A stretch of 64,000 nt of DNA from Bryobacterales bacterium (GTDB lineage Bacteria > Acidobacteriota > Terriglobia > Bryobacterales > UBA6623): NCBI GenBank assembly GCA_965248305.1, contig OZ252099.1:4785981-4849980 (forward strand), written 5' to 3'. This document shows, one piece after another, positions 2,448 through 60,151 of this stretch. The notes beneath the pieces are model-generated. The model was not told where the DNA came from. It searched no databases and was given only the letters and a program-made list of their open reading frames with translations. A program made the position numbers and the translations under genes. Within the stretch, counting starts at the first letter, position 1. The number at the start of each line of letters is the position of its first letter.

Positions 2448-4505
2448 GTCATTGATTTCATTGAGTCGGATTTCCGCGAAACGGATTTGCGGTCACTACA
2501 CTTTGTGATCCTTGGCGATATCTCCTGACTGTTCCCTGAGCGCGTCCCAGTCCAGCGGAATCGTGCGCCGGTGACGCTGGAACGCGAGCCCGGCCGCCGC
2601 TGCGAGGCGCGCCTGCTCGTTGTTCGGGTCCACGTCCTGCCGCTGGCTCCAGGTCTGCCCCTCCGCCGTCCGCATCGTCGCCGTCAGGCGCACCCACGTC
2701 CGCATCCGCTCGCGGATCGAGTGCCAGCTGTAGGTCACGCCCGCGGCCCGCAGCCGGTAGCGCAGGGCGTGCACCAGGTGATAGGCCAGCACCGTAATGA
2801 ACAGGTGACCCGCCACGCGCTGGCCCAGGCTGTGGTGCAGCGGCCGCAACCCCAGCTCCTCTTTGAACGAGCGGAACGTCGCCTCGATGTCCGCCAGGCG
2901 GCAGTACTCCCGCACGATCCGCTCGTCGTCCCAGTCCGTCCGGCTGGTGCGCAGCAGGCTCGTGCCCTGCACCCGGTCCCGCTGCCCGTGACGCGGCCCC
3001 AGCTCCCACAGCACGGCCTTGGCACGGCCCTTCTCGCCGCGCTCCACACGCACCTTGTACTGGCTCGCCACCAGCTTGTGCGTCTGCTCCAAGCGACCCA
3101 ACTTGCGCAGCACCTTGTCGTACGCCTTCAGGTGGCCCTTGACACTGAGCCCCGTGTGCAGCGCCTGCAGGCACGCCTCGTAGCGCGCCCGCCGCCGCTG
3201 CAGGAATTCTTGCTCGTCCCGCTCCCGCTGCGGGCTCCACACGCACAGCCGGGCCTCCTCACCCGGATCCGGCTCCGGCCGCTCCTCCGCCGCCCCTGCC
3301 TCCAAGCCGGCCTCCGCTGTGCTGAGCCGCCAGATCTGCAGCTGATGCCCCCCGGCGCTCTGCCACAGCGTGTCCGCGGCACGCTCCGGGGCCGCCCGCC
3401 GCTGCCGCTCCACCGTGATCCAGTGCAGGCCCTGCTCGCGCAGCCAAGCCAGGTTCTCCGCGCGCACGATGCCGCCGTCGAAGACCACCGTCGGGCGCTC
3501 CCCGGCCAGCGCGCCCAGCCGCCGGACCGCTTCCTGCAGCGTGCCGGGCTCGCCGACGTTGCCCGCCAGCACTTCCGACCGCCGCGGAAAGCCCTGCCCG
3601 TCCAGCAGCAGGCCGAGCGTGACCAGCGGGCAGTCATGGCGCTTCTGCTTGGAGCGGCCGCGCGCCGCGTAGGGGTGCTTGGGCCGGCCGGTATGGAAGG
3701 TGTTGGTGAGGTCGTAGAAGATGATGCGGGGCTCGAGGCGGAACAGCTTGCGCTGGTGGGCGAAGAGGGTCGGCTCGATCTGGTCGCGGGCCTGCCAGAG
3801 GGCGTCGGAGGCGAGGTAGAGCGAGTTGGAGGAGAGGTCGGCGGGCCGCAGGCCGAGCAGTTCGGGCAGGGCGGAGTCGTGCTGCAGCCAGCGCAGGGTC
3901 TCGCGCTCGCTGGCCGGATGCAGGGCGCGGGCGAGGATCTGGGCGCAGCCGAGGCGGACGTGGCGCGGGCGCAGTCCGGCCTGCTGCAGGCACTCGCGCA
4001 GGCCCAGTTGGCCAGCGAGCAGGTCGAGCAGGCGGGCCGCGCCGGCCTCGCGCACGTCGGTCTGGCGCAGGCTGGAGGGCAGCAGCGCGAGCGCCTGCTC
4101 GCGGGGTGCAGGTGCGGGATCGTCGGCGATCTGGAAGCCGAGGTCGCAATCGCCGTCGCGCAGGCGGCGGCGGACGAGCGGGGCGACGGCGCTGGCCTCG
4201 GCGGCGATGCGCTCGGCGAGTTCGCGCTCGGCCGGATCGGGGTCGGGCAGCGGACGCTGGCCGGTCAGCTGGTCGCGGACGGCGGCGGCGAGGCGTTTCC
4301 AGTGGGGGCGGGGGACGCGCCGATCGAGGCCGGCGGGGAAATGGGCGAGGACGATCTGGCGAACCTTGGCACCGCAGCGCTGGGAGTGGACGAGGCGGTA
4401 GGCGGTGCCGCCGGCAGCGCCGTGGGGGCGGGTCTGGACGCGCCGGACGAACATAGCCCCATGCTAGCGGAAAAATCCAAGTATGTCAAACTAGGTAGTC
4501 AGCAC
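2441..4505 (-). mobile_element. IS1634-family insertion sequence (termini approximate)
   Basis: It carries a single 652-aa transposase. An imperfect inverted core lies near both ends: GGATTTCCGC (2468-2477) versus GCGGAAAAATCC (4467-4478). The downstream end sequence GGAAATCCGA recurs as GGAAATTCGA at 30221 in the decayed second copy. Confidence 0.7.
2496..4454 (-). CDS. IS1634-family (IS4-superfamily DDE) transposase
   Basis: 652 aa with N-terminus MFVRRVQTRPHG... The C-terminal block REYCRLADIEATFRSFKEELGLRP fits Y-x2-R-x3-E-x6-K. A paralogous C-terminal half is present at 29.05-30.15 kb. Confidence 0.85.
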   Translation of the reverse strand: MFVRRVQTRPHGAAGGTAYRLVHSQRCGAKVRQIVLAHFPAGLDRRVPRPHWKRLAAAVRDQLTGQRPLPDPDPAERELAERIAAEASAVAPLVRRRLRDGDCDLGFQIADDPAPAPREQALALLPSSLRQTDVREAGAARLLDLLAGQLGLRECLQQAGLRPRHVRLGCAQILARALHPASERETLRWLQHDSALPELLGLRPADLSSNSLYLASDALWQARDQIEPTLFAHQRKLFRLEPRIIFYDLTNTFHTGRPKHPYAARGRSKQKRHDCPLVTLGLLLDGQGFPRRSEVLAGNVGEPGTLQEAVRRLGALAGERPTVVFDGGIVRAENLAWLREQGLHWITVERQRRAAPERAADTLWQSAGGHQLQIWRLSTAEAGLEAGAAEERPEPDPGEEARLCVWSPQRERDEQEFLQRRRARYEACLQALHTGLSVKGHLKAYDKVLRKLGRLEQTHKLVASQYKVRVERGEKGRAKAVLWELGPRHGQRDRVQGTSLLRTSRTDWDDERIVREYCRLADIEATFRSFKEELGLRPLHHSLGQRVAGHLFITVLAYHLVHALRYRLRAAGVTYSWHSIRERMRTWVRLTATMRTAEGQTWSQRQDVDPNNEQARLAAAAGLAFQRHRRTIPLDWDALREQSGDIAKDHKV

Positions 4506-24862: not shown

Positions 24863-26737
24863 TCATTCCCACTCGATCGTGGACGGCGGCTTGTTTGAGA
24901 TGTCGTACACGACGGCGTCTACGCCGTCCATCGCCAGCAAGCGGTCGGCTAGGGCGCGCAGCCCGCTAACGGCAAGTTCCGCAACGGACGCCGTCATGCC
25001 GTCAACCGAGATGACGGGCCGCAGGGCGACGGTCTCGCCGCCGTTGCAGCCCCACGGCAGCGACACCACCGGGCACTGCCAGACACTGCTGTAGAGATTC
25101 TCTGCGCGGAGGTATTCGGTCACCGCGTGGTCGACCTGCCGCAGTAGCCGCACTCGTTCTGGGGTCAGCGTGGCGGGCTTGATGTGCCACTCCTCTGGCC
25201 TGATCTCGCGCGGTGCGAGGCAGGCCACAATGCGGTTGGTCTGGCGGAATTCGTTCGTAATCGCAGTGGAGAGCGGCAACAGCCGGGCGTAGTCGAAGTC
25301 ACCGCCGTGCAGCACGGTCAAGTGCGCGTAGCTGCGACTGTCCCCCTGAACGCCCACGCTGCGCACTGGCAGCAGGAATGCCGAGTAGCCGGCCCGCTCG
25401 GCCAGCGCCGCGATTCCCTGGTCGGGGACCGCAGGCTCGGCCTCCGCTGAGCACAGGCAGCGGATCGCAAGTCCGGGCCCAGGAAACGGGTGCCGGTCGA
25501 GCAGTCTGTCGGGAAGCCCGATCACTCGACCAATCTCGCGAACTTCATCCTTGTAGAACTCACTCAAGGGCTCGAGCACGCGGCCAGCATCCAGCAGCTC
25601 CTGGATGCGTTCCACGCGATTGTGGTGTGTCTTGATCACCTCGGCGGCGTTCGTTCCGCCGGACTCGATCGTGTCGGGATAAATGGTGCCCTGCCCCAGC
25701 ATCCAGTCTTGGCCTGCATAGCGCTCGTCGCGGAGGATCTCGTCTTGAACGTCCACGAAAGCCTGGCCGATGATCGCCCGCTTGGTTTCGGGGTCGGCCA
25801 CGCCCCGCAGGCGATCCATGAACAGATCCGCGGCCGCAAACACGCGCAACTCGCCAAGTTCCATCTCGCGGAAGGCCGCTTCGATCTCTGCGGTCTCTCC
25901 CTCGCGCATGAACCCGGTGTCCACATAGACCGCCTCGACATGATCAGAGCCCAGAGCGCGAACCGCCAGAGCATAGGCCACGGTCGAGTCCACACCGCCG
26001 CTGAGGAAGAGCAGCACCGGCCGGTCGCCCGCCGCAGCCCTGATCTGCCCCAGCAGGCCCTCGACGCGATCCTTGGGATGCCAGTCCATTTCGCATGCGC
26101 AGGCATTGCGGAGGAAATTGCCGAGAATCTTGGATCCGTTGGGTGTGTGGACCACCTCGGGATGGAACTGTAGCCCGTAGACCCTGCGCCCCTCGTCGCC
26201 CATAGCCGCGACAGAGCACTCGGTCGTGTCTCCCAGCACCGCGAAGCCTGCGGGCAGGATAGCGACATGGTCGCCATGGCTCATCCAGACGCGCTGCTCG
26301 GCCGCCATGCCGTCAAACAGCCCGGCGGAGCCGTGCAGGCCCAGCGTCTGGTCGCCATGGCTCATCCAGACGCCCTGCTCGGCCACCATGCCGTCAAACA
26401 GCCCGGCGGAGCCGTGCAGGCGCAGCGTCGCGCTACCGAATTCCTGAGCCTGGCCGCGCTCGACCACGCCGCCGAGATGGCGAGCGATCAACTGGTGGCC
26501 GTAGCAGATGCCCAGCATGGGCTTGCCGAGCTTGAACAGTCCCGGATCGGGCTGCGGGCTGGCCTTGTCGAACACGCTCGATGGACCGCCAGACAGAACA
26601 ATGCCTGCGTGCTCGCTGACCCGCTCAGGGGAGACCCCAACGGGCAGAATCTCGGCATAAACGCCGAGCTCGCGAATCTTGCGAGCGATCAGGTGGCAGT
26701 ACTGCCCCCCGGAGTCGAGAACTGCGATTCTCTCCAT
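24863..26737 (-). CDS. guaA: GMP synthase (glutamine-hydrolysing), long form, carrying an internal 27-aa tandem duplication
   Basis: GATase domain (IAVLDSGGQYCHLIARKIRELGV, GICYGHQL, FHPEVVHT), ATP-PPase P-loop (FLSGGVDSTV) and C-terminal IEWE. The duplicated segment is described as a separate repeat feature. Confidence 0.93.
   Translation of the reverse strand: MERIAVLDSGGQYCHLIARKIRELGVYAEILPVGVSPERVSEHAGIVLSGGPSSVFDKASPQPDPGLFKLGKPMLGICYGHQLIARHLGGVVERGQAQEFGSATLRLHGSAGLFDGMVAEQGVWMSHGDQTLGLHGSAGLFDGMAAEQRVWMSHGDHVAILPAGFAVLGDTTECSVAAMGDEGRRVYGLQFHPEVVHTPNGSKILGNFLRNACACEMDWHPKDRVEGLLGQIRAAAGDRPVLLFLSGGVDSTVAYALAVRALGSDHVEAVYVDTGFMREGETAEIEAAFREMELGELRVFAAADLFMDRLRGVADPETKRAIIGQAFVDVQDEILRDERYAGQDWMLGQGTIYPDTIESGGTNAAEVIKTHHNRVERIQELLDAGRVLEPLSEFYKDEVREIGRVIGLPDRLLDRHPFPGPGLAIRCLCSAEAEPAVPDQGIAALAERAGYSAFLLPVRSVGVQGDSRSYAHLTVLHGGDFDYARLLPLSTAITNEFRQTNRIVACLAPREIRPEEWHIKPATLTPERVRLLRQVDHAVTEYLRAENLYSSVWQCPVVSLPWGCNGGETVALRPVISVDGMTASVAELAVSGLRALADRLLAMDGVDAVVYDISNKPPSTIEWE
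26268..26429. repeat. 81-bp x2 in-frame tandem duplication inside guaA
   Basis: Copy 26268-26348 and copy 26349-26429 are identical at 78 of 81 positions. Mismatches are at 26293/26374, 26304/26385 and 26341/26422. They encode TLRLHGSAGLFDGMVAEQGVWMSHGDQ and TLGLHGSAGLFDGMAAEQRVWMSHGDH. Confidence 0.95.
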
Positions 26738-26821
26738 CTAACACAGGGTGGCCGGCACGAACGGATCCCGGATAGCGCCCGGCGCAATCCCAGCAATCCA
26801 TTGTCGCATTCTGACGCCGTG

Positions 26822-26867
26822 CCAGCCTACAAGCGGCCCGCTACCACGCGAGCCGCTTGTAGGCTGG
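26822..26867. repeat. Perfect 16-bp inverted repeat (hairpin) in the guaA upstream region
   Basis: CCAGCCTACAAGCGGC (26822-26837), a 14-nt loop, then GCCGCTTGTAGGCTGG (26852-26867). There is no flanking T-run on either strand. Confidence 0.9.
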
Positions 26868-27260
26868 GTTGAGGCTATCCCATGCCATCTGGTCGCATGG
26901 AGCAACTATTGAATCTACGGTTGCGCGCTCTGGGCAAGGCCAGAAGGGTTACTGGAGTTCATTCCGTCACGCAGACCGAGCTCCTGCAGCGAACGTGCCC
27001 CGGCGGATTCGGGGACAGGCTGCAACGCTGCGTGCGTGTTGGTTCCGCGGCGGACGCCTCGTCGGACTGAACGTGCCCGGCCACGGCATGCTGCCCGACG
27101 AATATCGCGGGCAAGTAGCTGGACGGTGAATGCCACGACCGGGCTCAAGGCACCCGGCTTGCGCGGCACCCCGAAGACGAGTTGCACGGGCTTGGAACGA
27201 ATACCGTCTATTTCTCTTTATAAAAAGGATGAGTTCTACTAGAAGTCTCTTTATGAGAAG

Positions 27261-28619
27261 GTGAGATTAGCGAAGATGGTTGTGCCTCGGCCAAGATTGA
27301 AGCAGGTCGTCAGCGACCTGCTCACCGATTCCGCCCGGAAGCCGCTGCCGGCCTTGACGGCTCGGAACGTTCACGGACGAATCGACTTCTCTGGCAAGGC
27401 CACGGCCGTCGTCGGGGTTCGGCGCGCCGGCAAGACCACGTTCCTCCATCAACTGCGAGCCGGGAAAGTCCGCGAGGGCACTCCGCTACGCCTCCTGCCG
27501 TTCGTCTCGTTCGAAGACGAGCGACTGGTCGGTTTGGACGCTTCCGATCTTGGCCTGGTGGTTGACGAGTACCGTCGGCTGTTCCCGGATTCGAACCCGG
27601 CGGGGACTGTGACATGGCATTTCGACGAAATCCAATTGGTCAGTGGGTGGGAGCGATTCGTTCGACGGCTGCTGGAAACAGAGGGAGACAAGGTCCTTGT
27701 CACAGGCTCCTCAGCAGGCTTGCTCTCCCAGGAAATCGCGACGGCGTTGCGTGGCAGAGGGTGGCGCGTCCTCCTGCACCCGTTCAGCTTCGAAGAGGCT
27801 CTGCGGCACAGCGGAACTGAGCTCCCGTCGGAAGGAAGTCGCCTGTCGGCTAGGGACAGGCTGGGGATGGAGCGGGCCTACATGGACTGGCTCCGGACGG
27901 GAGGCTTTCCGGAGGCCCAAGGGCTGGAGTCCTCCGAGCGACGGCAGTTGTTACGAGACTACGTGGATGTGGCGATGTTTCGCGATGTGGTCGAGCGCCA
28001 CAACGTGCGGAACGTAACTGGCCTCCGCTGGCTGGTCCGGCAGATGCTCGGCAACGCTGGGTCGCTCTTCAGCGTCGAGAAGTTCTTCGGGGCCCTGAAG
28101 TCGCAGGGGATTGCGATCGGCAAGAATTCCGTGCATCAGTTGCTCGGCTACCTCGATGACTGCTTCTTGGTGCGCTTGATCTGGATGGAATCCGGGTCGG
28201 AGCGCCAGCGGATGGTAAATCCGCGCAAGGCGTATCCGGTGGACACAGGCCTGATTCCTGTCTTCGACAGGACGGGCAAGGCTAATCTCGGCCACGCTCT
28301 CGAAACAGCGGTGCTCATCGAACTCGAGCGGAGAGGATGCGAAATCACTTATGTTCGGACTCCGGACGGGTTCGAAGTGGATTTCCTGGCCCGCGGTCCG
28401 GGTGACCAAGCGGTTCTCATCCAGGCCTGCGCCGACCTGTCAGACCCGGTCACTGCCAATCGGGAGATTCGCGCCTTGCAGCGGGCGGGCGCTGCGATGC
28501 CGGGGGCCGGCAAGCTTATCCTGACGCTGACCGCCGACGGAATTCCGAGCGACCCGCCGACCGGCGTGTCCGTTCAGACGGCGTGGGAATGGTCGCTGGG
28601 TCTGCCGCCGGCCGCATGA
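27261..28619 (+). CDS. AAA+ ATPase of the AAA_14 / DUF4143 type
   Basis: Walker A GVRRAGKTTFLHQL and Walker B-like VTWHFDEIQ. The C-terminal part is DUF4143-like (YLDDCFLVRLI...NPRKAYPVDTGL). The gene is preceded by an AT-rich stretch (27190-27260). Confidence 0.85.
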   Translation: MRLAKMVVPRPRLKQVVSDLLTDSARKPLPALTARNVHGRIDFSGKATAVVGVRRAGKTTFLHQLRAGKVREGTPLRLLPFVSFEDERLVGLDASDLGLVVDEYRRLFPDSNPAGTVTWHFDEIQLVSGWERFVRRLLETEGDKVLVTGSSAGLLSQEIATALRGRGWRVLLHPFSFEEALRHSGTELPSEGSRLSARDRLGMERAYMDWLRTGGFPEAQGLESSERRQLLRDYVDVAMFRDVVERHNVRNVTGLRWLVRQMLGNAGSLFSVEKFFGALKSQGIAIGKNSVHQLLGYLDDCFLVRLIWMESGSERQRMVNPRKAYPVDTGLIPVFDRTGKANLGHALETAVLIELERRGCEITYVRTPDGFEVDFLARGPGDQAVLIQACADLSDPVTANREIRALQRAGAAMPGAGKLILTLTADGIPSDPPTGVSVQTAWEWSLGLPPAA

Positions 28620-29049
28620 GGGCCACTCCACCGATCTCTGCGCCTGCTGGGCTCTCCCCGACCCTACAGCCCTGCGCTACTCAACGCTGTGGGCAAATCG
28701 TCTTCGCCTGCGGCATCGAGCCGATCTTCGAGGAGCGGTGTTCCGCCTACCAGGATGAGCGGCTAAGCAAACAGGGCTGGCAGCGCGATTCCCATGACCT
28801 CACGAGGTGATCCTGCCGCTCGGAGCTGGCCCAGTGCCGGACGTGGTCCTGCAGTTACTGATGTCGCCAGCCGGACCTCGCAGTGTCTGGCGGCAGAAGG
28901 CCCAAGGGCGGGCAGAATCTGTCCGGCGCGGCACCACGCACACAGAACCAAGACCAGCCTAATATCAGGCTGCCAACACGCGATCTGGCACGTACGTCGC
29001 GACGCTGCCGGATCGGACTCCGGCTCATTGCGCTGGCAGGTATTGGGGA

Positions 29050-30150
29050 GATGACCGAGGGATTGACTCGGTTCAGGATGGCGGTAGCTGCGACGGCCTC
29101 CGGAGCGCTGGCAGCAGCATGGGGTCCCGGCTCGGTCGCGGTCGAACGGAGCCGCACCCCGCCAGCAGTGCCGGCAGTGAGAGTAGGGCCGTCGCAGGCT
29201 CACTGCACCGAACAGGCTGACCAGCGGCGTGGGCCGCGGCCTCTCGCAGTGCATGGGGCTGCCGAAGGCGCACGGCGGTGGCTGGCCCCCGTTCGAGACG
29301 CGCAAGCACCCGCTGGCAAAGGTCTGGAAGCTGGCCAGCGACAACGACAGCGACAGCGCCGAAACGCGTCTGTGCGTGTGGAGCGATGGCCGCCAGGCGA
29401 AAGAGGACAGCATGCTCGCACAGCGTCGGGAACGCTTCGAGCAGGAACTGCGCCAGCTGCATGCCGGGCTGTCCAAAGCGGGTTGCACCAAGCGCTATGC
29501 ACGCGTCTTGGAGCGCCTCGGGCGCATCAAGGAGCGCCACAAAGCCGTGGCGGGCCAATATCACATCACGGTCACCCAGAAAGCTCCCGAAACCACTGCA
29601 GCAGACGCAGCCAAACCGCAGCCGGCCGCGCCAAACCAAGCCGGCGCTGGCCGCCGCCGTCGCGTGGCAGCGCAACGCCAAACACGCCCAGCGCTCGGCC
29701 ACGGCGGGGACCTATCTGTTGCGCACCAGTCACTGCGACTGGGACCTGGAGCGCGTGGTGCGCACGTATTGGCAGCTCAGCGACATTGAGGCGACCTTCC
29801 GCAGCCTGAAGGGCGAACTGGGCCCGCGCCCGATCTACCACAGCAAGCGGGACCGCATTCGGGCGCACCTGTTCGTGGCGGTTTTGGCGTACCATGCGAT
29901 CCACCTCGTGCGGCAGCGCTTGGCCGCGGCCGGCAACCATGACAGTTGGACCACCCTGCGGCACAAGCTGGCCAATTGGGTGCGCCAGACGACGACCCTG
30001 CAACGCGAGGACGGGCGTTGGATCGAGACGCGGCAGGACGCGCGCCCGACACCGCAGGCGGCCCACCTCGCCAGCGCCTTGGGCTGGCCGCCCCAACTGC
30101 ATCGGCAGAGGCGGGTGACGCCGGAGCCGGTGGCTGCCCGGGAGCACTGA
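29050..30150 (+). pseudogene. Decayed IS1634-family transposase (C-terminal ~55%, at least 2 frameshifts)
   Basis: Pieces in three frames align to the 2496-4454 protein: VAVERSRTPPA ~ ITVERQRRAAP; ETRLCVWSDGRQAKEDSMLAQRRERFEQELRQLHAGLSK ~ EARLCVWSPQRERDEQEFLQRRRARYEACLQALHTGLSV; GTYLLRTSHCDWDLERVVRTYWQLSDIEATFRSLKGELGPRPIYH ~ GTSLLRTSRTDWDDERIVREYCRLADIEATFRSFKEELGLRPLHH. Confidence 0.8.
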
Positions 30151-30262
30151 ACAATTCCAATCGTGTGGTGCCATACTGAATTCCGAGGTGCCCATAAGTC
30201 ATGTCGTTGCAACTACTTATGGAAATTCGATTTTCAAAAACGGTGAACTCGGGCTGGGACAC
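29050..30262 (+). mobile_element. IS1634-family remnant (5' part deleted), including right terminus
   Basis: The transposase pseudogene plus the terminal sequence GGAAATTCGATTTTCAAAAACGGTGAACT (30221-30249). That terminus is related to the end of the intact copy. Confidence 0.65.
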
Positions 30263-30302
30263 TCAGCTGCTCTTTAGCTCGACGAGTGTACCGAGACCCC
30301 CT

Positions 30303-31889
30303 CTACAGCGGGGGAGGGACGTACGCCGGGTTGGGGCTATGTCGAATCGGGACGTTGGCCTCGATCCACGCTGCCAGCTTGGCCTGCAGTTCTTCCGCAA
30401 TCCGCGGGAACTGGCCCGAAAGCTCCGCGCGCTCGCCAATATCGTCATCGAGGCGATACAGCTCGACATGCGGCGGATCGTAGAACTCGAGCAACTTGTA
30501 GCCGCCCGATAGGATCGCTGCCCCGGGAGCCCTGGCCTGCGGGCTGTAGTGCGGGTAGTACCAGACCAAGTCGCGCGAGTCCCACTCGCCGCGCTCGATC
30601 AGCGAGGCGAGACTCCTGCCGTCAAGCGCCGGCAAGCTGTGCGGATCGACGCCCCCGACCTCCGCAATGAACGGATACAGGTCGGCGTTCGTAACCGGCT
30701 CGCCCTCGATGGTGCCAGGCACGCCCCGACCCGGCCACCGAACAATCAGAGGAACCCGGATGCCCCCTTCATAGAGGTGGCCCTTGCCCGCCCGCAGCGG
30801 CGCGTTGTCGGTCACCGTGTCGAGGCCGCCATTGTCCGAGGCCACGATCACGACGGTGCGATCGTCAATCCCAAGTGCCTCCAGCGCATCGAGGATCCGC
30901 CCCACGCTGTCATCCACCGTTTCGACCATCGCGGCATAGACGGCATTCTTGCCAGAGTCTGAGGCAGCCATCTTCGATTCGTACTTGCGCACGAGATGCT
31001 CGGGAGCCTGCAACGGCGTATGCACCGCGTAATGCGACAGGTACAGAAAGAACTGGCGGTCTTTGTTCGCCTCGATGAACTTCAGTGACTCGTCCGTGAG
31101 GCGATCCGTCAAGTACTCCCCTGCGCTGCTGCGGGCAAGATCCAGATTGGGCATGTCCGGGTTCCACGCCTGCTCCGGCTGTTGGTACGGGAAGAAATAG
31201 CTCGCGGGGCTGCCGTGGGTGTGCCCGGCAACATTGATGTCAAAGCCGTGCTCGCGGGGCCAGTACGGCTCGTGCCCAAGATGCCACTTGCCGATGCTGG
31301 CCGAGACATACCCCACTCCCCTGAGGACTTCAGCGAGGGAGTTGAATTCGTGCCGCAGGTACATGAAGTCCTCGGGCGGCACGATCGCTCCCCGCTCGGG
31401 ATAACGATGGCGACCAATCGCGGTGATGTGCCCCGTGAATCCCACCCGACCCGGATTCTGGCCGGTGATCAGAGCAGCGCGGCTCGGTGAACAAACCGGG
31501 CAGTTCGAATACGCCTGGGAAAAGCGCACGCCCTCGGCCGCAAGCGCGTCGATTCGCGGAGTCTCGTAGAACTGCGACCCTTGGCAGCCGAGATCCATCC
31601 AGCCCAGGTCATCGACCAGCACCAACACCACGTTTGGCGGGCCGGGCTGTGCCTGCCGGCCCCAGTCACACGCCAACAGCGACAGCACGGCAGACAATGC
31701 TGCGACGACCGCCCGAGCGAAGAGCCCCGCACGAGCAGAACTAATTCCGCCGCCCGGGGCTTGCGCTGGGCCACCAGTTTGGGCAATACTGGAACTTCGG
31801 GGTGAATACCCCGAACATCTCGGTCGCGCTGACCGACCAATTGGTTTGGTTTGCGCGCCCCCCTCTTCAGGCTGAACAGGAAACTGCAT
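30303..31889 (-). CDS. Arylsulfatase-family sulfatase (formylglycine type), probable lipoprotein
   Basis: NVVLVLVDDLGWMDLG and the CSPSRAALITG (C-x-P-S-R) active-site motif. A LLAC lipobox-like leader is present. The ORF opens at 31955; the ATG at 31889 is preferred, and the start is uncertain. Confidence 0.88.
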   Translation of the reverse strand: MQFPVQPEEGGAQTKPIGRSARPRCSGYSPRSSSIAQTGGPAQAPGGGISSARAGLFARAVVAALSAVLSLLACDWGRQAQPGPPNVVLVLVDDLGWMDLGCQGSQFYETPRIDALAAEGVRFSQAYSNCPVCSPSRAALITGQNPGRVGFTGHITAIGRHRYPERGAIVPPEDFMYLRHEFNSLAEVLRGVGYVSASIGKWHLGHEPYWPREHGFDINVAGHTHGSPASYFFPYQQPEQAWNPDMPNLDLARSSAGEYLTDRLTDESLKFIEANKDRQFFLYLSHYAVHTPLQAPEHLVRKYESKMAASDSGKNAVYAAMVETVDDSVGRILDALEALGIDDRTVVIVASDNGGLDTVTDNAPLRAGKGHLYEGGIRVPLIVRWPGRGVPGTIEGEPVTNADLYPFIAEVGGVDPHSLPALDGRSLASLIERGEWDSRDLVWYYPHYSPQARAPGAAILSGGYKLLEFYDPPHVELYRLDDDIGERAELSGQFPRIAEELQAKLAAWIEANVPIRHSPNPAYVPPPL

Positions 31890-43727: not shown

Positions 43728-44115
43728 TCGACCTGCCGGTCTCTGAGACCCAGCCATTCGGCAGCCTCGCACTGCTCCATGCGTTTTCCATTTTCATTGC
43801 CAGCGAGATCATCTGCTCGAGGAATTCTGCTTGGACGTGGAGGAGCCGCTCGCTGGAACCGGAATCCGGTCGACCGTGGATATCGTTGCAACCTGACGGT
43901 CGGGTTCAGGCATGAGGAGATGACAGTTCTCGTCAGGCTTGCGCCACCGGCGTAGTTGATCGAGCCGACCGGCCTGATCGAGACACCGGCAGCGTGGGTT
44001 CGCGGACCGCCCCGGCGGTACGGCCGGACGCTGCGACGCTATCCGACGGGGCCTCCTTGCTAGCGATTAGCCAAGGCGCAGATTCCGCCGGAGCCGCCCT
44101 CCGTGAGGCAGGCCG

Positions 44116-59902: not shown

Positions 59903-60151
59903 CTAGGTGGCCTTGAGGGCACCCAGAGTGGCGTGGAGGGCGTCCAGAGCGGCCATCATGGTGTTCTGAGCGGCCTTATTCTCGACCTGCATCGCCTCGA
60001 TCTTGGAGATGATGTTCTCTCCGGCCATGGCCCGTACCTCTTCCACCGCAGTATACGCCAAGGCACTCTCCGAATCGACCTTTCGCAAGAGGCGGTAGAG
60101 CCCGGCTAGGGCTTCGGTATCGTTCTTCGTGATTCCTTGTTTCGTGGGCAT
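59903..60151 (-). CDS. Small predicted coiled-coil protein (82 aa)
   Basis: The ATG at 60151 is preceded by GGAGG at 5-nt spacing. The protein is MPTKQGITKNDTEALAGLYRLLRKVDSESALAYTAVEEVRAMAGENIISKIEAMQVENKAAQNTMMAALDALHATLGALKAT and ends at a TAG (59903-59905). No family was recognised. Confidence 0.45.
   Translation of the reverse strand: MPTKQGITKNDTEALAGLYRLLRKVDSESALAYTAVEEVRAMAGENIISKIEAMQVENKAAQNTMMAALDALHATLGALKAT

Follow-up and report, generated by a model that had tools for sequence, protein, structure and literature searches.

An in-frame 81-bp tandem duplication in guaA of a Bryobacterales bacterium: probably a tolerated, reversible length polymorphism

Background

In the duplications engineered into T4 lysozyme by the Matthews laboratory, one copy reportedly stays in the native place and the other loops out. 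In-frame tandem repeats have been described in penA, a beta-lactamase gene of Burkholderia thailandensis, where they revert precisely at 9.3e-7 to 3.6e-5 (Yi et al. 2014, PMC4169377); some of these repeats are not bordered by direct repeats and are associated instead with same-strand complementary sequences (SCS), whose positions vary (PMC4169377). The GMP (guanosine monophosphate) synthetase of Plasmodium falciparum (PfGMPS) tolerates a lineage-specific 32-residue insertion in its glutamine amidotransferase (GATase) domain (PMC10526850). Here we describe an in-frame 81-bp tandem duplication in the GATase-coding part of guaA, the gene of the glutamine-hydrolysing GMP synthase, of a soil/sponge-type Bryobacterales bacterium (assembly GCA_965248305.1, contig OZ252099.1, positions 4,785,981 to 4,849,980). 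This stretch of 64,000 nucleotides is called the window, and all coordinates refer to it. The duplication had first been noted from the sequence alone, and the original prediction left three interpretations side by side: a tolerated insertion, a lineage-specific structural elaboration or a compromised allele. Our analysis makes it likely that the duplication is real and vertically inherited, that it segregates in one Bryobacterales species-level population, and that it adds a tolerated, disordered loop, possibly with a template-switch origin and probably with the capacity to revert. No in-frame tandem duplication in GMP synthase came up in a search of the literature.

Results and discussion

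The repeat and its gene

The repeat units and the catalytic positions of the gene are as follows.

24863..26737, minus strand: guaA coding sequence, 624 amino acids (ORF (open reading frame) list, NF000848, Pfam; product identical to database protein P0121)
26349..26429, minus strand: repeat unit 1 in gene order, in the phase given by Tandem Repeats Finder (TRF), about residues 104-130, TLRLHGSAGLFDGMVAEQGVWMSHGDQ (TRF, copy comparison)
26268..26348, minus strand: repeat unit 2 in gene order, about residues 131-157, TLGLHGSAGLFDGMAAEQRVWMSHGDH (TRF, copy comparison)
26504..26506, minus strand: codon of catalytic Cys78 (GICYGHQ), single copy, intact (residue check against the alignment)
26156..26164, minus strand: codons of catalytic His192 and Glu194 (QFHPEV), single copy, intact (residue check against the alignment)

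TRF reported one array at 26268..26429 with a period of 81, 2.0 copies, 96% matches, 0 indels and a score of 303. Direct comparison of the two head-to-tail units showed 78/81 identical positions, the mismatches falling at 26293/26374, 26304/26385 and 26341/26422. The unit length is a multiple of 3 and the array lies inside the guaA coding sequence, so the repeat is in frame; the extent, identity and frame of the duplication and its coverage of the VWMSHGD motif, all claimed beforehand, were thus confirmed by TRF, the ORF and the copy comparison. The differences between copy 1 and copy 2, CGC/GGC (R106/G133), GTG/GCG (V118/A145) and GGC/CGC (G122/R149), are all non-synonymous, exactly as had been stated. 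The observation is, however, unremarkable: 76% of random single-base changes in these codons are non-synonymous, and three out of three is expected with p = 0.45. It was therefore rejected as a sign of selection.

The 81-bp array is the sole substantial tandem repeat in the window. Weak short repeats (about 2 copies, 77-88% matches) occur at 3797..3838, 43957..43990 and 59907..59954, with periods of 21, 18 and 21, respectively. A 201-aa ORF antisense to guaA (26267..26872, plus strand) itself holds the repeat (MVAMAHPDALLG... twice); we take it to be spurious, typical of a genome with 63% G+C, and not a gene.

The guaA product corresponds to the 597-aa type of glutamine-hydrolysing GMP synthase found in Bryobacterales, with 27 extra residues. 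It scored 536.8 bits with the NF000848 equivalog (PRK00074), whose cutoff is 400, which bears out the earlier assignment of the gene. Pfam detected GATase, the P-loop region of an NAD_synthase-like pyrophosphatase, and GMP_synt_C: the class-I glutamine amidotransferase domain PF00117 covers residues 6-210 (E = 1.5e-39), and PF00958 (GMP_synt_C) matched with E = 1.1e-21. C78, H192 and E194 are invariant columns of the alignment and all are present; the SGGVDS P-loop (residues 246-251), the IKTHHN lid motif (368-373) and the C-terminal KPPSTIEWE are intact. With every sequence-defined feature tested in place, the 624-aa protein is to all appearances an ordinary member of the GuaA family.

Allelic states and distribution of the duplication

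Relatives of GuaA were sought in a collection of 5.8 billion proteins. The GuaA type of Bryobacterales and other Acidobacteriota is almost always 597 amino acids long (= 624 - 27), and 118 of the 120 proteins among the matches listed are single-copy. The inspected entries longer than 597 amino acids have N-terminal extensions or an inter-domain insert, not the 81-bp repeat. In the genome collection, where the scan returned species representatives of 76% identity or less, 21/21 representatives of Bryobacterales/Terriglobia are single-copy for the guaA unit. The insert is thus absent from the other Bryobacterales GuaA proteins examined and not fixed even within the 90%-identity cluster of the query, which speaks against a lineage-specific structural elaboration.

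That cluster holds three length classes of GuaA, 624, 618 and 597 amino acids. NCBI and ENA list the 624-aa protein (P0121) on 3 contigs. The 618-aa protein (P0001) is encoded at two loci, L001 (ERZ26694896, a 2.5-Mb contig, 142x) and L002 (ERZ25068817, a 29-kb contig from another analysis), and the 597-aa protein (P0122) at L003 (ERZ25072854, a 350-kb contig). In L001 and L002 the junction between the units (GGCGACCA/GACGCT; here and below a slash marks a boundary) is identical to that of the window, and the unit-1 substitution C45T (Ala to Val) is also common to all three. L001 and L002 carry in addition an in-frame 18-bp deletion in unit 1, which removes AGLFDG, and the changes G7A, C8T and T12C in unit 2, which turn TLRL into TLCP. 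A 6.5-kb alignment of the two shows 8 differences, so they are not one consensus deposited twice. A common junction and a common C45T lying beneath private changes point to a single inherited duplication event.

L003 guaA equals window guaA minus exactly one unit, with 0 other differences in 1794 nt, and a 21.8-kb comparison of the loci gave about 99.85% identity. Compared with this single-copy allele, unit 1 of the window carries the derived changes C45T (Ala to Val) and C56G (Arg to Gly), and unit 2 the derived change C8G (Arg to Gly). The L003 unit reads R...A...R...H, which is the product expected from a crossover between the window units anywhere between unit nt 8 and 45; it also equals the reconstructed ancestral sequence. 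That the window lineage acquired the duplication anew, and then three substitutions, after its split from L003 was rejected (Poisson P = 5.6e-4; junction and C45T shared with L001). L003 is either a precise secondary collapse or the ancestral allele retained in a recombining population. The junction 25-mer was not found in the JGI metagenomes, and a relaxed junction pattern matched there unrelated guaA genes only, one match each. Taken as they stand, the sequences make the duplication a within-species polymorphism with three allelic states and not a family feature.

The same comparisons bear on the explanation by artefact, in which the assembly or consensus stuttered and the repeat has no biological counterpart. 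It has on its side, and this weighs on our own reading, that all the evidence comes from metagenome assemblies, possibly from related projects. Against it, the copies differ at 3 sites, the junction recurs in at least two further assemblies (other ENA analyses, different contig naming, private changes), the contig names indicate 142-169x long-read assemblies, and elsewhere in the 64 kb no tandem repeat is comparable. The divergence of the copies had been the original argument against a stutter; the identical junction in L001 and L002 goes beyond it. Stutter appears ruled out as far as assemblies alone can do so, and we consider an artefact scarcely credible.

An exhaustive search of 1.84 billion protein representatives with a 40-aa query, a search of low power, returned an artefact-like fragment (P0133) and an unrelated partial GuaA of another organism (P0134, 312 amino acids). 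The latter has a different in-frame duplication of about 75 residues (LTVTDGSGLF...RHFLHH, twice), which spans the same hairpin and the catalytic HPE loop and may be real or a contig-end artefact. With that of P0134, internal GATase duplications in GuaA appear to be rare but not unique. The top of the same search was occupied by proteins with multiple leucine-rich repeats (LRR), with E-values down to 1.6e-16 summed over 5-10 repeats. GuaA residues 138-165 (window about 26243..26326), AGLFDGMAAEQRVWMSHGDHVAILPAGF, resemble the LRR consensus LPEGLFDGLTSLQxLxLSxNQLxxLPxGxF. This GLFDG...LP.GF likeness is most likely chance or convergence, and a warning for searches with short queries.

Position of the insert in the enzyme

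The duplicated region can be divided into the following segments.

26417..26428, minus strand: strand beta-a, TLRL, residues 104-107, kept from copy 1 (alignment; AF2 (AlphaFold2) strand 102-107)
26336..26416, minus strand: putative dispensable insert, residues 108-134, HGSAGLFDGMVAEQGVWMSHGDQTLGL, a phase-shifted unit (MAFFT gap, AF2 pLDDT (predicted local distance difference test), register scoring, mutation positions)
26267..26335, minus strand: native loop and strand beta-b, residues 135-157, HGSAGLFDGMAAEQRVWMSHGDH, kept from copy 2 (alignment; AF2 strand 147-151)

In a MAFFT alignment, 73 single-copy homologues matched copy 1 at residues 104-107 and copy 2 at residues 135-157, leaving a gap at 108-134. 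R106, A145 and R149 are the family consensus, while G133, V118 and G122 are not among the commonest residues of the family. The retained segments are the same in all three alleles: strand beta-a (TLRL, with the consensus R106) is unchanged, and so are residues 135-157, which include the invariant F141, W151, S153, H154, G155 and D156.

With a profile built from single-copy homologues, three possible 597-aa readings of each allele were scored. The hybrid of the two copies was best in both cases, with 1119.4 vs 1116.3 and 1113.8 bits for the window allele and 1117.1 vs 1110.9 and 1094.7 bits for the L001 allele. In L001, copy 1 is without a nearly invariant Leu and an invariant Phe, and copy 2 has a Pro in strand beta-a, where the family always has Val, Ile or Leu; therefore only the hybrid register can be native in L001.

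The AF2 model of the 624-aa protein (predicted template modelling score, pTM, 0.83) has strands 102-107 and 147-151 built into the GATase sheet, and residues 111-137 are its sole long low-confidence segment (pLDDT <50). It superimposes on 2ywb with a target-normalised template modelling score (TMt) of 0.84 and on the GATase 2d7j with a TMt of 0.89 and a root mean square deviation of 1.8 A. Loop length varies among GuaA proteins, as the Coxiella and E. coli enzymes have a dozen more residues between LFDG and VWMSH. In the P. horikoshii GATase (PhGATase) the loop joins two strands carrying Tyr101 and Trp125, which contact the catalytic His/Glu loop (PMC5052720).

The family alignment, the profile scores, the AF2 model and the sites of later mutations all lead to a single, hybrid arrangement. 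The evidence points to a 27-residue extension of a beta-hairpin loop, beside which the enzyme continues to use a single native copy of either strand, and the initial description as a duplicated core beta-strand overstates the problem. The unit would encode the strand-loop-strand hairpin of the class-I glutamine amidotransferase domain; beta-a (TLRL) would be supplied by copy 1, and the LFDG loop and the VWMSHGD strand by copy 2, while residues 108-134 would be extruded as a largely disordered extension of the hairpin loop, with catalysis preserved. Most likely, the insert is a floppy loop of 27 residues.

Constraint and decay of the insert

All post-duplication events (C45T, C56G, the 18-bp deletion, C8G and G7A/C8T/T12C) lie between nt 22 of unit 1 and nt 12 of unit 2; the chance of such clustering in one phase-shifted unit is 0.03-0.07. 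The insert shows 5 non-synonymous changes and 1 synonymous one, a ratio that is 11:20 elsewhere in guaA (p = 0.043, one-sided Fisher test). For the whole gene pN/pS, the ratio of non-synonymous to synonymous divergence per site, is 0.22, vs 0.27 in neighbouring genes. All three alleles have an unbroken ORF, the later 18-bp deletion being in frame, and guaA shows no sign of pseudogenisation. These observations indicate what would be a functional enzyme bearing a dispensable, decaying loop of 27 residues. Under relaxed constraint the insert would be expected to gather amino-acid changes and an in-frame deletion, and slippage or unequal exchange between the units could remove it precisely, restoring the 597-aa enzyme.

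It can be argued that the allele is compromised, its glutamine-dependent activity being crippled and the cell surviving through ammonia-dependent activity, purine salvage or a second guaA. The 27 residues are inserted in a hairpin whose strands pack on the catalytic loop, further damage has built up in the sister allele (L001/L002), enzyme function is deduced from sequence, and the genome was inspected over about 20 kb around guaA. Yet the ORF is intact in all alleles, the 18-bp deletion is in frame, the catalytic triad, P-loop, IKTHHN and KPPSTIEWE are all intact, pN/pS is indistinguishable from that of the neighbouring genes, and a complete native copy of each strand is unchanged in every allele. 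Among the interpretations originally offered, a tolerated insertion is thus favoured by the intact motifs, the pN/pS of 0.22 and the later deletion being in frame, whereas the same features (ORF, triad and P-loop, pN/pS, deletion in frame) do not favour a compromised allele, which we hold to be quite improbable.

Another explanation is adaptive: selection might maintain the duplication because lengthening the hairpin loop affects how the GATase is activated or regulated or how stable it is, or because the length toggles reversibly. The duplication persists on two allele backgrounds (synonymous divergence per site, pS, about 0.045) despite the instability of tandem repeats, and comparable Burkholderia repeats revert at 1e-6 to 4e-5, which makes long persistence notable; the 5:1 ratio of changes in the insert and the contact of the PhGATase hairpin strands with the catalytic His/Glu loop could be read in the same sense. 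The changes, however, resemble decay and not refinement (Leu-Phe lost in one copy, a proline in a strand, residues unseen in the family), the single-copy allele coexists in a near-identical strain, the insert occurs in no other lineage examined, and the non-synonymous excess is marginal and equally expected under relaxed constraint. Divergence of the copies also in itself stabilises tandem repeats against slippage, as known from work on diverged repeats and mismatch repair. Adaptive maintenance is on balance unlikely, if somewhat less so than a crippled enzyme. In its most specific form, selection would maintain a reversible length switch: template switching would add the unit and slippage remove it (597 to 624 amino acids and back), and the enlarged hairpin loop, adjacent to the catalytic His/Glu loop, would tune glutaminase activation or stability. 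Such a switch would parallel the penA tandem-repeat toggle, but in nature and in a housekeeping gene. We rate it low, as doubtful as the compromised allele, because the observed changes look like erosion and not refinement. The tolerated, decaying loop therefore remains the preferred reading of these changes.

Origin of the duplication

Slippage between bordering direct repeats was considered and rejected: 0 bases are common to both boundaries (GC/GACGCT...GACCA/TGTCGC). The junction and its complements lie at the following positions.

26344..26351, minus strand (gene strand): new junction 8-mer CCA/GACGC, CCAGACGC, created by the duplication (sequence comparison)
26366..26373, minus strand: GCGTCTGG within unit 1, reverse-complementary to the junction 8-mer at every base (candidate same-strand complementary sequence)
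26285..26292, minus strand: twin of GCGTCTGG in unit 2 (inverted-repeat search)

Inverted matches of at least 8 nt spanning the junction were found in 1.25% of 20,000 random 81-bp pseudo-duplications drawn from the window (empirical p about 0.0125). The inverted repeat at the junction suggests a fold-back or template-switch origin of the SCS type. In such an event the nascent 3' end (...CCA) would fold back onto TGG and copy GACGC from GCGTC; the new end could then re-anneal at the GACGC that opens the unit, and the unit would be replicated a second time, giving the tandem 81-bp duplication.

Recombination around guaA

Between window and L001, groEL/ES and about 10 kb on the downstream side of guaA show 0 mismatches, but guaA itself has 35 and the adjoining AAA_14/DUF4143 gene 74; further upstream of the latter lies a non-homologous cassette. 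From this pattern the guaA region is clearly recognisable as a recombination mosaic. The duplication is present on two guaA backgrounds, between which pS is about 0.045, and it predates the most recent strain divergence.

The AAA_14 and DUF4143 gene beside guaA (27261..28619, plus strand, 452 amino acids) matched the PADLOC candidate defence family PDC-S01 with E = 5.8e-85. The swapped cassette upstream of it extends roughly over 28640..30440. In the window and L003 it contains two small genes, 29229..29789 and about 29758..30150, which gave no Pfam match; the second has a weak Avs3a-like PADLOC match (E = 3e-05). L001 and L002 have an MNT/HEPN pair (NTP_transf_2 and HEPN) at this site. Strain divergence peaks at the cassette and defence region and reaches into guaA, and the cassette region looks like a defence-island recombination hotspot.

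The extended C-terminal region of GuaA

The C-terminal dimerisation region of the 597-aa Bryobacterales GuaA is about 70-90 residues longer than in the bacterial enzymes of 503-525 amino acids. The extended C-terminal third corresponds to window 24863..25450, residues about 430-624. HMMER aligned two distinct stretches of the query, one ending at residue 473 and the other covering 524-624, to parts of T. thermophilus GuaA that overlap (394-447 and 394-503, respectively); two GMP_synt_C stretches were also reported by Pfam. The best Foldseek E-value of the GuaA model was obtained with human GMPS (2vxo), in which a second dimerisation sub-domain is inserted. When the halves of the extended region were compared by BLASTP, no similarity was detected.

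Overall assessment

Several points weigh against the reading of a real, inherited and tolerated duplication of template-switch origin. The inverted repeat at the junction was noticed post hoc, its support is modest, and we treat it as a lead. The statistics for relaxed constraint on the insert are modest as well (p = 0.04-0.07). A second guaA may exist elsewhere in the genome, of which about 20 kb around the gene were inspected. The 3 contigs with P0121 may be re-depositions of a single assembly, and the recombination mosaic complicates the dating of the duplication. The step between 624 and 597 amino acids may be a collapse in L003, or L003 may have kept the ancestral allele. The AF2 model is biased by its alignment, in which the homologues are uninformative for the insert, so that low confidence there is expected and the model provides consistency, not proof. 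Finally, as the hairpin strands contact the catalytic His/Glu loop (PMC5052720), the insert might not be harmless.

With these points taken into account, the duplication is probably an ordinary, tolerated and reversible length polymorphism and not a new enzyme design; the case reveals no new enzyme, pathway or mechanism. Its value is that one natural population shows a short in-frame duplication of an essential enzyme at three stages, intact, decayed and single-copy, and that the later mutations map the residues still needed (one native copy per strand) against those not needed (the phase-shifted loop unit). It is a worked example of how a protein can tolerate duplicated core elements and of a possible origin of loop indels, and it cautions that tandem repeats of this kind in long-read metagenome-assembled genomes can be real.

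Comparison with known systems

The protein resembles canonical GuaA (E. coli 1GPM, T. thermophilus 2YWB) in the order of the GATase, ATP pyrophosphatase and dimerisation domains and in the catalytic triad, SGGVDS and IKTHHN; it differs by 27 extra residues in the GATase hairpin loop. PfGMPS is a precedent for a functional GMP synthase whose GATase domain tolerates some 30 inserted residues. The P. falciparum insertion, however, is fixed, is not a tandem duplicate and is described as lying between beta5 and beta6, whereas the guaA insert is polymorphic and decaying and is not present throughout its clade. As in the T4 lysozyme duplications, the native position would be kept and the extra segment extruded; in contrast to them, where the duplicated element was an engineered helix of a different protein, the native arrangement proposed for GuaA is a hybrid of both copies.

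The closest parallel is with penA. In both cases a head-to-tail, in-frame duplication in an enzyme gene enlarges a loop and is absent from orthologues, for guaA from those outside the 90%-identity cluster. The guaA junction 8-mer has an internal complement, which may correspond to the SCS class of penA repeats, and the single-copy sister allele may correspond to their precise reversion. The penA repeats emerged in the laboratory under antibiotic selection and alter the substrate spectrum, whereas the guaA event is natural, old enough to have diverged and located in a housekeeping gene, and its reversion is putative. The guaA duplication thus adds one more example to a known category, that of tandem duplications that stay in frame, lengthen a loop and can revert.

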